Of a stretch of 51,115 nt of DNA, positions 789 through 4,925 are shown piece after piece (positions within the stretch are counted from its first letter, which is position 1; every line of letters starts with the position of its first letter). The position numbers were made by a program, and so were the translations under genes. This stretch comes from Candidatus Brocadiia bacterium (lineage in GTDB: Bacteria > Planctomycetota > Brocadiia > SM23-32): NCBI GenBank assembly GCA_046538485.1, contig JBKHIT010000034.1, forward strand, positions 1 through 51,115, in the 5' to 3' direction. The notes below the pieces were generated by a model, which had not been told where the DNA came from, searched no databases, and saw only the letters and a program-made list of their open reading frames with translations.

Positions 789-1065
789 TTGTCTGTCAAC
801 GGTTCAGTTGCGAGGGACTCCAGCGTTCCCAGGATAGGGAACGGGATCCGGGATGGCTGAGTCCAGCATTCTGTTCCGAAGAAAAATTAAGGAATTTGCG
901 CTCGGTCCGACGGCAAAGTCCGCCGGGATTTTCTGGAAATGTCCGGCTACCGGGCAGCGAAAAGGCCTCCAGCGCAAATTCCTCGAAAGAGGATTTTGTG
1001 GAGGGGGCTGTAATGCGGTATGCTATTCAGAGAAAGAGAAAAAGATCTGAGCCGGGAGGGAAATT

Positions 1066-1938
1066 TTGTCTGATCTTCCTCAGGACAGCGATACCCCGGC
1101 GTTGTCGCAGCTGCGGATACCGTTCGGGCTCAATGAAGAAGGGGCTTGTGTGCGTCCGGCGGACGCTGAGCGGTCAGGCTGTTATTTCTGCCCCGAATGC
1201 GGGGAAGCGCTCATTCTGCGGCGCGGTGAGATTAGAGTTTCTCATTTTGCCCATTACGGCGACCCAAATTGCCGTCTGGCAGGGGAACGCTGGATGCATG
1301 TGGCGGCGAAATATGTCCTCAAGGATGCCATTAGGCGAGCGAGCGAGGGTGCTGGCCCTCAAGTGCGGCTCCTCCGGCGGTGCCCGATCTGCAAATCTCG
1401 AAAAATGCAGAACGTGCCGGCGCGTATTTCCGAAGTGGAAATTGAATACAAACTTAAAAACGGGCGGGTGGCAGACCTGGCGCTGTTCGATTCAGAGCAA
1501 AGGTTGGCGTGCGTGGTCGAAATCCGCCGTTCCCACGAAGTCGACACGCGGAAACAGACTGATTTAGAGGGTCTTCCCTGGGTGGAACTGGCGGCGGGCG
1601 AGGTTCTGAAGAACCCCCAGCTGTGGTTTCCGTTGAAAACCAACGGGCTTCGGAAATTTCGCTGTCTCTGTGAGGGTGCCACACGTATGCGGACGGTCCG
1701 GCGGACCTTCGGGTTGCACGTCCCCCAATGTCCACTGGCGGTCGGCTTGCCCCCGGGCCAGTCGCATCGCAATACCGTCTCCGACTGTCGGTCGTGTCCG
1801 TTTATGAGAAAGATATGCGAGATCGCCGGCGAATCCGCGCGGGAAGTCATCGTCCTCTGCGAAGGGATTACCAGCCGGGGCGCCAGCCGAGCAGCAGAAA
1901 TCGGCCCCTCTGGCATGTCCTCCAGGGCGAATCGCTGA
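1066..1938 (+). CDS. Competence protein CoiA-like PD-(D/E)XK nuclease with Zn-ribbon
   Basis: YFCPECGEALILRRGEIRVSHFAH, GERWMHVAAK, EYKL..RVADLAL..VVEIRRSH; GGGAGG RBS before TTG start. Confidence 0.7.
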   Translation: MSDLPQDSDTPALSQLRIPFGLNEEGACVRPADAERSGCYFCPECGEALILRRGEIRVSHFAHYGDPNCRLAGERWMHVAAKYVLKDAIRRASEGAGPQVRLLRRCPICKSRKMQNVPARISEVEIEYKLKNGRVADLALFDSEQRLACVVEIRRSHEVDTRKQTDLEGLPWVELAAGEVLKNPQLWFPLKTNGLRKFRCLCEGATRMRTVRRTFGLHVPQCPLAVGLPPGQSHRNTVSDCRSCPFMRKICEIAGESAREVIVLCEGITSRGASRAAEIGPSGMSSRANR

Positions 1939-1978
1939 GTTGGAGTCTGCCCGTGGTGTCTACTCATGGTTGGTCGTT

Positions 1979-2006
1979 TTCTCCGCCTCAAGTCCAGTTA
2001 CGCCCG
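1979..2006 (-). repeat. Partial module B repeat
   Basis: Minus strand reads CGGGCGTAACTGGACTTGAGGCGGAGAA, matching the 3' half of module B. Confidence 0.65.
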
Positions 2007-2049
2007 ACTCGATTGAGCCGCGCCTCGACCGCAACAAAAAGAGGACACG

Positions 2050-2280
2050 TCAGAATTCCGCGAACTTCCGGGTCCAGCTTTGCATAGGTACTTCGGCTGG
2101 GTGCATCTCGCTGTTTTTGTAATGGCCTCGGTGCTCCTGTCGCGATATCCAGCGGGCCGAGCCGTCGAAGAACGCGCCATTAACTCCTTCGAGGTCATGC
2201 GACCAGCCCTGGTCATATTTGTTGGAGTAGGGTCCGTTATTGGCAAAGGGGGAATACCACGGGGGGCCATCTCGGCCCAC
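2050..2280 (-). pseudogene. C-terminal fragment of a prepilin-type / H-X9-DG (DUF1559-like) protein
   Basis: WSHDLEGVNGAFFDGSARW resembles the H...N.xF.DG motif; no prepilin N-terminus upstream. Confidence 0.55.
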
Positions 2281-2328
2281 AGAGGGTGGAGAAGTTGAGG
2301 CTAATCGTAGGCATTTCGGAACGATACA

Positions 2329-2375
2329 GCGGTGAGTAAAACGTCCCGTCGGTCCGTTTTAACACACCGCACTCC
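2329..2375 (+). repeat. REP-like hairpin, copy 2 (IS110 insertion site)
   Basis: GCGGTG-AG-TAAAACG...CGTTTTA-ACA-CACCGC then ACTCC; similarity to copy 1 stops after CC 2374-2375. Confidence 0.8.
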
Positions 2376-2387
2376 TACAGTTATGCT
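2359..2387 (+). promoter_or_regulatory. Hybrid sigma70-like promoter across the target/IS junction
   Basis: TTAACA (2359-2364, in the REP), 17 bp, TATGCT (2382-2387, in the IS left end). Confidence 0.5.
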
Positions 2388-2393
2388 GTTGTG

Positions 2394-2635
2394 TAAATGA
2401 CAAATGTACCCTATGCATTAGGGGATGCGCGGGGGGCTGCGCAGCTCCCCGCGCGCGATGGATCCGGAGCGCCGGTAGGGCCTCCGCACTCTGCTGCGGT
2501 TAAGACAGCTACTTTGGTCAGCACCCCCGGCCTCCGATCCCTCGCAGAGTGTCCTTCAGAAGAAGCCCATCCGCCTTAAAACAGCGGATAGGGCCGATGT
2601 AGGAGAACTTGCTTGCGAGGCGGTAGATCCACCGT
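2394..2635 (+). ncRNA. Putative IS110 bridge RNA (seekRNA)
   Basis: 5' hairpins (2409-2423, 2427-2454) then two arms with large internal loops (2465-2536, 2540-2620) closed by TGGATC/GATCCA. Loop segments CCGCACTC (2484-2491), CTTTGG (2512-2517) and TGTAGG (2598-2603) match the target and donor junction sequences. Ends approximate. Confidence 0.75.
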
Positions 2636-2680
2636 TTGCTCTCTGCGCCCTTTTTCCTCCTGAATACAGGAGAATGACCA

Positions 2681-2760
2681 ATGTTAGAGGTCGGTATCGA
2701 TTGGGGACAGAAAAGCCCTAATGCATTCGCGATTCTCGCCGAAAATGGGAAACCTTGTCA
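2681..2760 (+). pseudogene. IS110 recombinase (DEDD RuvC-like) N-terminal fragment
   Basis: VGIDW motif with first catalytic Asp; the ORF (to 2887) runs into unrelated sequence after about 25 aa. Confidence 0.7.
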
Positions 2761-2854
2761 AAAAGGGATCCGTGCAGCGCCCCGCAGATACAGGCGGACA
2801 AAGACAGCCGCAAATGCAGCCGCTCGAATCCAGATCCGTATTTTCAGACAGAGC

Positions 2855-4189
2855 CTAAACGCCTCCGTCCTGGAGTTGTTGAGGTAGTCGATTGGGAAGC
2901 CCGATTACGTCTTCACATATATGGCCTGCCTTTTCAAAAGTGACGGGCAGGTTGGGCGATATGAAGACGTAGAATTTCCAGAGTGCACGATGTTGGTCCT
3001 GGAGGAGTTGTATTTCTGCGCTGTTAAGGTCGGAAAAACGTTCCGTTTTCCCGGGGGCCGAAACGACAGGCACATTGGCTTCCTTTAACGCCATTTCTTG
3101 CGGTGCGCAGTAGATGCCAACCTGATATTTGGAACCTCCCAGACGCTCTGCGATCTGTTGTTCGGCCTGGCCTCGTGCGTCTGCTTCGTTCAGATGGTAC
3201 TTGGCCACAAGTTCTTTCAGCTCCTCTGCATCTATCTTATCGCTCAGCATGTAGCAGCGTTTGAAGAGATCTCGTGCCTGGAATGCTTCAAGCAAATTGC
3301 GCAAACCGGGATCGCGTCCATAACGATCGAGCAGATAAAAAATCATCCCCTCATCTGTAAGACTGTAGAGTTCTGACTCATCCATACCATTGGCAAAAGC
3401 TCGTTCAATCGCCTTGGAGATCATAACTCCGCAGGCGATTTTCGCATGATGGTAGTAAACCCGTTCGCTGAGCACGTAGCGGATCCGCAGCAGGTTGGTA
3501 ACTTCGCTGAGTGCATCGTACCGGAAAATGCCCTGATGGTGAAGCTTAAGCATTAACCGGCCGTCCTGGATGGTGAAATAGTGAAAGACGCGCTGATCAT
3601 ATTGACGCGAGAGCCCGCAGAAATAATTATCTCGTTTGAGATAATCGAGCAGATCGGCGCAGATTGTGCCGCTGACGATATCTTGAAGCCACTGCTGGTC
3701 AGGCGGCAGCTCCCCGGATGGGTCGAGGATTCTAAGGGCTCGTCGCCCGGCTTCCGTGGTAGCCAATCGATGGCCCAATTCACTTTTCAAAAGAAAGTGG
3801 TCGAAACGTTTCGCACTCTTATCGTGCCGGCTTAGAATTTTGCGCTCATCTTCAAACGTATGCCCGAAGGGAATATGGGTTACGTCGTGAACGAGTCCAG
3901 CAAGAGCCGCCGTCTTTTTGAGGGTTTGCGCGATAGGCTCTGCCAGCTGTTTTTCAATATGCCCGAGAAGTTGTTTAGCCATCCAGCAGGCGCCGATGGA
4001 ATGCTCGAAGCGGGTATGTTGTGCAGAGGGGTAGACGAGAAAAGCGGCTCCGAGCTGATGGATGCCGCGAAGCCGCTGCATGGTTGGAGTGTCGACAATC
4101 TCGATCTCCTGCGCCGTCAGGTGGATGTCTTTATGGACGGCGTCTCGGAGTTTTTTGCCTTTTTGGCTGGGTGACTCCTTTTCGGGCAT
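2855..4189 (-). CDS. HD-domain phosphohydrolase (dNTP triphosphohydrolase/YwfO/SAMHD1-like)
   Basis: RDAVH, QRLRGIHQLG, HTRFEHSIG, LVHDVTHIPFGHTFE, ADLLDYLKRD, VYYHH. Confidence 0.85.
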   Translation of the reverse strand: MPEKESPSQKGKKLRDAVHKDIHLTAQEIEIVDTPTMQRLRGIHQLGAAFLVYPSAQHTRFEHSIGACWMAKQLLGHIEKQLAEPIAQTLKKTAALAGLVHDVTHIPFGHTFEDERKILSRHDKSAKRFDHFLLKSELGHRLATTEAGRRALRILDPSGELPPDQQWLQDIVSGTICADLLDYLKRDNYFCGLSRQYDQRVFHYFTIQDGRLMLKLHHQGIFRYDALSEVTNLLRIRYVLSERVYYHHAKIACGVMISKAIERAFANGMDESELYSLTDEGMIFYLLDRYGRDPGLRNLLEAFQARDLFKRCYMLSDKIDAEELKELVAKYHLNEADARGQAEQQIAERLGGSKYQVGIYCAPQEMALKEANVPVVSAPGKTERFSDLNSAEIQLLQDQHRALWKFYVFISPNLPVTFEKAGHICEDVIGLPNRLPQQLQDGGV

Positions 4190-4250
4190 GCTGCGTGTCT
4201 CAGATGGTCAGGAACGGTGTTCAAAAGTTTGAAATGGCCACTTGCGGGTT

Positions 4251-4925
4251 TCAGCTTTCCGAGGAAGCGTCGAGTTCTTCCAAATCGGGCAGTTCTCTCA
4301 AAGAGGAGAGCCCGAAGGCTTCCAGGAAATCCGATGTGGTTCCGTAGAGCAAGGGGCGTCCGAGTTCTTCGCCACGACCGGTAACCCGCACCAATTTCTT
4401 CTCGATGAGTGATCGAAGAATATACCCGCTTTGGACCCCCCGGATGTCTTCGATATCGGCTCGAGTAATCGGTTGCCGATAAGCGACGATTGCGAGAGTC
4501 TCGAGTGCTGCCTGGCTCAGAGAACTTTGTTCTTGAGTGGTGCGCAGTTTGGAGATCCACGGATTAAATTCGGCGCGGCTCAGAAGTTGAAAACCGCCTC
4601 CAATTTCCTCGATATTAAATGCGCGAGGTACTTCCTCGTATTCGTTTTGCAATTCTTTAATCAGGGATCTGGCAGTATTCCCGCTTTCCAGTCCTACCAG
4701 GTTGGCGATCTTAGTGCTACTGAGGGGCTCGGTGGCGGCAAAGAGGATAGCTTCAACGAGAGCTTTCTGTTCCTGGTGGTTTAGCTCCCCGGGCGCAGGC
4801 TCTTGCTGCTCTTCTTCATTCTGTTGCTTTTCAACCCCGCGAGCTTTCTCAATCGGGATAATTCGCTCCGATTCCTCGTCGGATGCCTGGTTCTGTTTTG
4901 AGTCCTGATTTTCGTTTTCGGACAT
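4251..4925 (-). CDS. scpB: SMC-Scp complex subunit ScpB
   Basis: VEAILFAA, LSQAALETLAIVAYRQPITRADIEDIRGV, GRPLLYGTT..FLEAFGL. Confidence 0.95.
   Translation of the reverse strand: MSENENQDSKQNQASDEESERIIPIEKARGVEKQQNEEEQQEPAPGELNHQEQKALVEAILFAATEPLSSTKIANLVGLESGNTARSLIKELQNEYEEVPRAFNIEEIGGGFQLLSRAEFNPWISKLRTTQEQSSLSQAALETLAIVAYRQPITRADIEDIRGVQSGYILRSLIEKKLVRVTGRGEELGRPLLYGTTSDFLEAFGLSSLRELPDLEELDASSES

Follow-up and report, generated by a model that had tools for sequence, protein, structure and literature searches.

A probable IS110-group bridge RNA gene in the left end of a decayed insertion sequence within a REP-like repeat of a Candidatus Brocadiia bacterium

Introduction

A contig of an uncultured Candidatus Brocadiia bacterium (GenBank assembly GCA_046538485.1, contig JBKHIT010000034.1; the stretch of 51,115 nucleotides analysed here is called the window) carries, ahead of a short ORF with an IS110-like N-terminus, a structured non-coding region whose nature raises a question: is it the leader of a recombinase gene, or does it encode an RNA that guides the recombinase to its DNA sites? 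The original prediction, made from the sequence of the window, held it to be a bridge RNA whose guides spell out its own target and donor. Since bridge RNAs are predicted in 85.7% of IS110-group elements, as stated in excerpts of Durrant et al. (2024, PMC11208160), an element of this sort belongs to a known kind.

We describe here the anatomy of the region, the matches of its guides to DNA, the junctions of the element, copies of its site that are unoccupied, and how far the fold is conserved. Segment 2376-2787 of the window is very probably the left part of an IS110-group insertion sequence, integrated in a REP-like repeat at CCGCACT-CC, whose left end encodes a bridge RNA. As far as sequence can tell, this appears to be a genuine IS110-group bridge RNA gene, a further example of a known system with no new mechanism, for which the label of an uncharacterised member given by the original prediction is fair. 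The source communities are those of salt lakes and microbial mats.

Results

The window carries a remnant of an IS110-group element

The features of the locus are listed in Table 1. The left non-coding end is 95% identical to that of a second copy in the same genome (C71, 95% identical from 2367 onward) and near-identical to that of L029, the one locus returned by a search of metagenome contigs (three differences in 2455-2630); the homology starts at the identical base in every copy compared. The ORF at 2681 begins with MLEVGIDW and breaks down after some 36 codons, one nucleotide having been inserted near 2750; its homology to the C71 recombinase gene ends at about 2787. Because the recombinase gene is frameshifted and truncated and the right end is missing, the window copy is unable to move alone, and it is a dead remnant. 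The repeat that replaces the rest of the element belongs to a family of about 75 bp, and directly adjoins the truncated recombinase gene as well as an HD-domain gene (2855-4189), at the 3' end of the latter.

Table 1. Features of the element and its surroundings in the window (RNA letters are used for the arms and hairpins of the predicted transcript).
Feature	Position	Strand	Details and basis
Left flank, a module belonging to a family of REP-like repeats (...GTTTTAACACA)	2340-2366	+	Genome matches of 2340-2380, 85-97% identity
Promoter-like site from flank and element: TTAACA, 17 nt, TATGCT	2359-2387	+	The -10 hexamer (2382-2387) is that of the element
Left target CCGCACT (2367-2373) and core CC (2374-2375)	2367-2375	+	Identical 9-mer before TACAG at 5/5 left junctions
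Left non-coding end	2376-2680	+	305 nt; starts with TACAG, the right donor
Two 5' hairpins, ahead of the guide loops	2409-2423 and 2426-2455	+	Predicted, MFE fold
Target-binding arm	2465-2536	+	Left guide CCGCACUCU 2484-2492, right guide CUUUGG 2512-2517, handshake UC 2518-2519
Donor-binding arm	2540-2620	+	Left guide within 2558-2568, right guide UGUAGG 2598-2603, handshake AG 2604-2605
Hairpin CUCCUG/CAGGAG sequestering the RBS AGGAG, ahead of ATG 2681	2657-2672	+	Predicted, MFE fold
DEDD recombinase gene remnant	2681-2787	+	About 36 codons; pairwise alignment to C71
Unrelated repeat of about 75 bp, replacing the rest of the element	2784-2860	.	More than 12 genomic copies, 90-97% identity

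The truncated 68-aa ORF of the window gave no Pfam match. The N-terminus encoded by C71 matched PF01548 (4.9e-16); in that copy the middle of the gene is lost between two WRN motifs and both ends are kept. A full-length recombinase, P0002 (406 aa, 96% identical), occurs in this form only on metagenome contigs. Its PF01548 score is 98 bits; on PF02371 it reaches 18.4 bits, short of the 21.3-bit cut-off, and the paralogue P0013 passes PF02371. Across an alignment of 22 relatives, residues D7, D60, D100, D103 and S273 do not vary. At the level of the family, therefore, both domains required of an IS110-family recombinase are found, namely the DEDD N-terminal domain and the Tnp domain with its catalytic Ser.

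The recombinase family is small, comprising 24 proteins at E <= 1e-20 among 5.8 billion, and its members of 45-64% identity sit on short metagenome contigs. No intact copy of the element was found in this 88%-complete assembly. Searching genome contigs with the recombinase N-terminus returned no close relative with DNA, and searching them with the 22-protein alignment returned 40 loci at 25-34% identity and one 66% fragment. In a sample of 401 genomes of the phylum, 12 had matches, none of which exceeded 32% identity outside the source genome. Fragments made up of 3' recombinase sequence and right-end sequence were also found at C90:9786-9997 and C141:24805-24919 (98% and 87% identity, respectively), evidence of additional decayed copies dispersed through the genome.

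Junctions define a CC core and a CCGCACT-CC-GAAA site

The left junctions of the window, C71, C26, C20 and L029 all read CCGCACT-CC/TACAG, behind four different outer flanks. The right end, which was correctly assumed to have been lost from the window, is present elsewhere in the same genome, on C71, C20 and C54. There it ends in (T/G)AAGAAGCA-CC, the junctions reading ...TTGACATAAGAAGCA-CC-GAAATTG in C71, ...TTGACATAAGAAGCA-CC-GAAAGCG in C20 and ...TTGACCGAAGAAGCA-CC-GAAAGTT in C54. Since similarity among the three (...AAGAAGCA-CC/GAAA) stops after GAAA, the natural site is CCGCACT-CC-GAAA, and the circle junction would read ...AAGAAGCA-CC-TACAG. The core CC proposed from the window recurred at five of five left and three of three right junctions, and the nine nucleotides of the left target and the four of the right target were constant at every junction. 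The right target AAAG that had been proposed with it was not borne out, all three right flanks reading CC-GAAA in place of the expected CC-AAAG.

Occupied and unoccupied sites could also be compared. The left and right flanks of C20 jointly rebuild one REP, of a type that is unoccupied at C18, C21 and C73, and five unoccupied CCGCACTCC-GAAA sites were counted. Logan contigs from three of four runs (two of three studies) depart from the C71 sequence precisely at the core (L002 1884) and just past GAAA (L002 943), and in the contig of the fourth run (X3) a full-length gene lies behind a ...GTTTTAACACA flank resembling that of the window. One contig of run X4 joins the left and right flanks of C71 as CCGCACTCC-AAAATTG. 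As an empty site it was rejected and not used as evidence, because its shorter side is only 26 nt long and it has one extra base, so that it is probably another REP copy.

The two element fragments on C20 (about 1029-4590, minus strand), 85 bp of left end and 129 bp of right end, lie 3.4 kb apart in the same orientation, with outer flanks that rebuild a single REP. Between them are found a 381-bp repeat, of which a 98.9% copy lies just outside the right flank, a gene for an 847-aa secreted protein and further REPs. Three origins are conceivable for this arrangement: a non-autonomous derivative that carries cargo, a rearrangement, or an assembly error.

The right end measures about 219 nt and contains a strong hairpin. 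It is long for an IS110-group element, and the guide RNA could conceivably reside in it, as in the seekRNA elements of the IS1111 group, the structure in the left end being secondary. We hold this to be very improbable: the left non-coding end is the longer of the two, as is usual in the IS110 group, all four guide segments described below are found in this leader, which was the part searched for guides, and long subterminal inverted repeats were not seen at the ends of the element. The left end is thus taken as the one that holds the RNA.

The left end is predicted to fold into two conserved arms

All the stems that had been named in the original prediction, and the internal loops between them, were recovered at their proposed places. 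The target arm is closed by CGGAG 2465-2469/CTCCG 2532-2536, GCCGG 2471-2475/CCGGC 2527-2531 and GGG 2478-2480/CCC 2524-2526, and has GCTG 2493-2496/CAGC 2506-2509 as inner stem; the donor arm consists of CCTCGCA 2540-2546/TGCGAGG 2614-2620 and GCCC-ATCCGC 2565-2574/GCGGAT-A-GGGC 2584-2594. The MFE fold of 2390-2680 gives both arms at -126.3 kcal/mol, compared with -104.3 +/- 5.2 kcal/mol for shuffled sequences (z = -4.2), and none of 200 shuffles was as stable. In this fold the donor loop is partly filled by an alternative UCCU/AGGA pairing, as had been anticipated. Comparison with Rfam gave only noise, with four matches at E 0.32-7.7 that are far below the gathering scores. A 60-aa ORF at 2397-2579 was rejected as coding, because two indels within it, of 1 nt and 2 nt, separate C71 from the window.

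The MFE folds of the window, L029 and C102 have both arms, and that of the decaying C71 copy the donor arm only. Substitutions specific to C71 break three pairs, and the contigs of other runs stay paired at these places or turn to wobble, which fits the decay of a deleted copy. C102 is an intact paralogue with a 422-aa ORF 45% identical to P0002, and the only diverged relative for which DNA was available. Its leader aligns to 2455-2630 and folds unaided into the same two arms. Reading the alignment against the fold, seven pairs are changed on both sides, four in the target arm (three in its outermost stem, one in its inner stem) and three in the donor arm (one outer, two inner), the bulged A is kept, and the loop strands are strongly different except for UGUAGGA.AAC.

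Covariation was evaluated on a model-fitted alignment of six rows, four of them near-identical, in which the diverged ones are the paralogue and a weak hit (L076). In this alignment 95% of the cells pair, versus 87.6 +/- 1.3 in shuffles, and ten pairs change on both sides, versus 2.9 +/- 1.3; none of 500 shuffles reached ten, and slid controls gave 0-3. The covariance model, built from five sequences and run on 58 sources, found the five training sequences and L076 (19.5 bits, E = 0.018), which lies 74 nt upstream of the distant recombinase match of that locus. Both the folding and the covariation of these few, related rows are as expected of the proposed two-arm RNA.

Proposed guides in the two loops correspond, fully or in part, to the target and both ends of the element

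Candidates for the segments expected of a bridge RNA, left and right target guides followed by left and right donor guides, were found in two successive loops of this IS110-type leader. In the first loop, the 5' strand CCGCACTC at 2484-2491 is identical to the left flank at 2367-2374, as had been noticed. Extended by one base, up to the inner stem, the left target guide CCGCACUCU agrees with CCGCACTCC in eight of nine positions at each of the five junctions, and in the ninth it forms a U-G wobble, the last base of the guide being U (A in C102) and not C. The 3' strand of the same loop is CTTTGG, at the place indicated for it. Since the window has lost its own right flank, its right target guide CUUUGG was compared with other sites: it pairs with CC-AAAG in 6/6 positions, with CC-AGAG through one G-U pair (as given in the original prediction) and with CC-GAAA in 5/6, over the first five bases of this site and with one G-U pair. 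The corresponding guide of C71, CUUCGG, pairs with 5/6 of its own CC-GAAA, with one mismatch.

In the second loop, TGTAGG at 2598-2603 is indeed the reverse complement of CCTACA at 2374-2379, so that the right donor guide UGUAGG pairs with CC-TACA in 6/6 positions; this guide is kept in C102. The left donor guide had been sought within 2551-2566 at a time when no right end was at hand. Its location was supported by AAGAAGC at 2560-2566, a 7-nt identity with the terminus of all three right ends (C71, C20 and C54), and its register with the core was not: one DNA base before the core is unmatched, RNA AAGAAGC-CC facing DNA AAGAAGC-A-CC. The AAG repeat also admits a second register, and the register that fits best is not the same in this element as in C102.

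In IS621, each 3' guide is followed by a handshake dinucleotide, which pairs at positions 6-7 with the non-cognate DNA but not with its cognate (Hiraizumi et al., 2024, PMC11208158). Read from the sequences against this rule, the donor-loop handshake AG is complementary to target positions 6-7 (CT), and the U of the target-loop handshake UC meets the A at donor position 7 rather than the T at target position 7, position 6 being unpaired; neither dinucleotide pairs with its cognate position 7. The handshakes of C102 co-vary, with CG facing right-end positions 6-7 (CG) and AU facing AU in its own left target guide.

It could be argued that the leader is a mere structured 5' UTR controlling the expression of the recombinase, by a promoter, an RBS hairpin or an attenuator, and that its similarity to the flank and the ends is due to chance or composition. 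Such a role would agree with hairpin 2657-2672, which sequesters the RBS in the MFE fold and may do so in the transcript, and with the result that no RNA run was found to hold the sequence among the 15 runs listed. Nor are single guide matches rare: in 5000 dinucleotide-preserving shuffles of the 305-nt leader, the left-target 8-mer appeared in 58, the right-end terminus 7-mer in 363 and the 6-mer complementary to the left junction in 634. However, all three together appeared in none of the 5000, in a test that takes no account of loop strand; the actual matches, moreover, occupy the proper strands of one internal loop and then of the next, ordered as in IS621. The handshake dinucleotides fit as well and co-vary with C102, and the loops of the paralogue diverge while its stems are kept. 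Control of expression as the sole function of the leader is consequently very unlikely, and the reading as a bridge RNA is retained.

A sigma-70-like promoter may be rebuilt at the circle junction

TTAACA-17-TATGCT is the sole sigma-70-like site in 2300-2720, where 0.2 are expected in shuffles. In the window it is the REP flank that supplies TTAACA at this 17-nt spacing. At the complete ends, TTGACA ends 11 nt before the terminus of the right end, and the left end has TATCCT, or TATGCT in the window, beginning at 6 nt. Joined in a circle, the two hexamers TTGACA and TATCCT would be separated by a 17-nt spacer. A promoter reconstituted across the RE-LE circle junction is thus predicted from the separate sequences of the two ends, and the RNA would start near 2394.

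The target is the joint of a REP-like repeat family

The claim that the target is a REP-like repeat held good, segment 2340-2380 matching many places of the genome at 85-97% identity. Its left-flank module also precedes CCGCACTCC at C109 (six sites) and C13, and a variant of it with CCGCAATCC lies at 246-285 of the window. The 9-mer CCGCACTCC has 106 copies in the genome, versus about 40 expected under uniform composition, and sits mostly at a joint where one of at least five left REP-like modules meets one of at least five right ones, in several combinations. It is followed by ACAG at 19 sites, ATAG at 17, AGAG at 15, GAAA at 5, TACA at 4 (the element itself) and AAAG at 2; the other 44 sites comprise GCCA, AACC and GTAG (two each) and 38 singletons. 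The right modules begin with NNAG or GAAA, followed by a GC hairpin. There is a possibility that the 9-nt joint is kept or shuffled by this recombinase.

Positions 176-800 of the window belong to a long repeat of about 300-450 bp that recurs many times in the genome, and an unoccupied target-like site, ACACACCGCAATCC-AGAG, occurs within it at 270-289; the long ORFs listed over this region are probably spurious. Solo fragments of the leader were also found in the genome: those on C26 and C20 end, and that on C13 starts, at the GC-rich second hairpin (2426-2455). At C26:60631-60717 and C13:52045-52166 the leader is joined at this hairpin to an inverted long repeat of the 176-800 type, and the 85-bp leader piece of C20 is joined to the different 381-bp repeat. 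These break points suggest recombination between the hairpin of the element and REP hairpins.

Because the leader recombines with REP-like repeats, as in the C13 and C26 chimeras, and the 9-mer has so many genomic copies, the identities between loops and flanks might be relics at the DNA level, pieces of REP captured by recombination with an abundant repeat, and not guides of an RNA. Past the 8-9 nt of the guide, however, the leader resembles no right module of a REP. Such capture would also leave unexplained the donor-side matches to the two ends of the element itself, the antisense guides in the 3' strands and the layout of C102, which is the same with different loop letters. We consider an origin as relics highly unlikely and continue to treat the matching segments as guides.

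The paralogue C102 (L024 622-1890, minus strand) has its own two-loop leader, and at its right end, ...TTGACATAAGGACG-CC, it borders on a different REP family (TGTGAGTTGAGCGC...). A search for its left junction did not locate it, and no match of its guides to its flanks was established. A TGTGAGT repeat on both sides was rejected as junction, as it lies inside the start of the neighbouring sulfatase-like gene; a candidate site, CAGGAATCT, has a guide fit of 7/9 and gave no donor match.

Sibling leaders share the left target guide and differ in the right one, which is CUUUGG in the window, CUUCGG in C71, CUAUGG in C13 and UUUUGG in L029; of the 19 columns that vary among 176 nt, three lie within this 6-nt guide (rough binomial P = 0.026). 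CUAUGG fits CC-ATAG perfectly. The variants were assigned to CC-AAAG and CC-AGAG (CUUUGG), CC-ATAG (CUAUGG) and CC-GAAA (CUUCGG and UUUUGG), the comparison with an own flank being that of C71. Sibling bridge RNAs of a natural community might thus differ preferentially in the right target guide, each variant fitting another REP subfamily, as retargeting in progress in a clade with C at the second core position; we offer this tentatively and think it unlikely.

Discussion

By analogy with IS621, transcription of the RNA, its binding by the protein and recombination would take the following course. On excision, the right end (...TTGACATAAGAAGCA-CC) would join the left end (TACAGTTATCCT...) in a circle, creating a sigma-70 promoter that drives an RNA of about 240 nt from the left non-coding end, from near 2394 to about 2632. 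The first internal loop of this bridge RNA would bind the target and the second the circle junction, and the DEDD/Ser recombinase, in its full-length form P0002 (406 aa), would exchange strands at the CC core.

The element adds a pair of bridge RNA and recombinase for which target, donor, core and handshake positions could be inferred from natural junctions. If active, the pair could enlarge the set of sites that can be addressed and might be used as an orthogonal tool. For annotation, the 400-bp structured non-coding region of the window is explained, the local copy being a dead remnant.

With the seekRNA elements of the IS1111 group, the element has the recombinase superfamily and the two-loop logic in common. 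In that group, according to PMC11208160, it is the right end that encodes the RNA, and subterminal inverted repeats of 7-17 bp are present; in the element described here the left end holds the guides, and repeats of that kind were not seen. A likeness in target choice is offered by ISPpu9 and ISPpu10, IS110-family elements of Pseudomonas putida that, in the excerpted descriptions, insert at one conserved position of multi-copy intergenic repeats of REP type; their host lineage and target motif are different, and the likeness is one of description.

The nearest parallel is IS621. The core is CC here and CT in IS621. In published reprogramming of IS621 the second core T has been held constant. 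This T is nearly invariant in IS621 and its relatives, according to excerpts of PMC11208158. A limited literature search did not find a CC core mentioned with IS110 or bridge RNA, and such cores may have been reported. The two systems differ further, as far as the excerpted text of PMC11208160 and PMC11208158 describes IS621, in that the RNA described here would have about 240 nt and two 5' hairpins, in contrast to 177 nt; that its right target guide has 6 nt including the core, in contrast to 4 nt in wild-type IS621; that its left target guide ends in U, which can only wobble with the second core position; and that its right end is long (about 219 nt). Otherwise the element is laid out like IS621 as described in these two papers and by Hiraizumi et al. 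(2026, PMC13626964): an RNA in the left end, upstream of a DEDD/Ser recombinase gene; 5' hairpins, then a target-binding loop, then a donor-binding loop; guides in the 5' strands that equal the top strand and guides in the 3' strands that are complementary to it, each with a 2-nt core, as proposed here for the left donor and right target guides; handshake dinucleotides after the 3' guides; a promoter rebuilt across the RE-LE circle junction, here as read from sequence; and a REP-like repeat as target.
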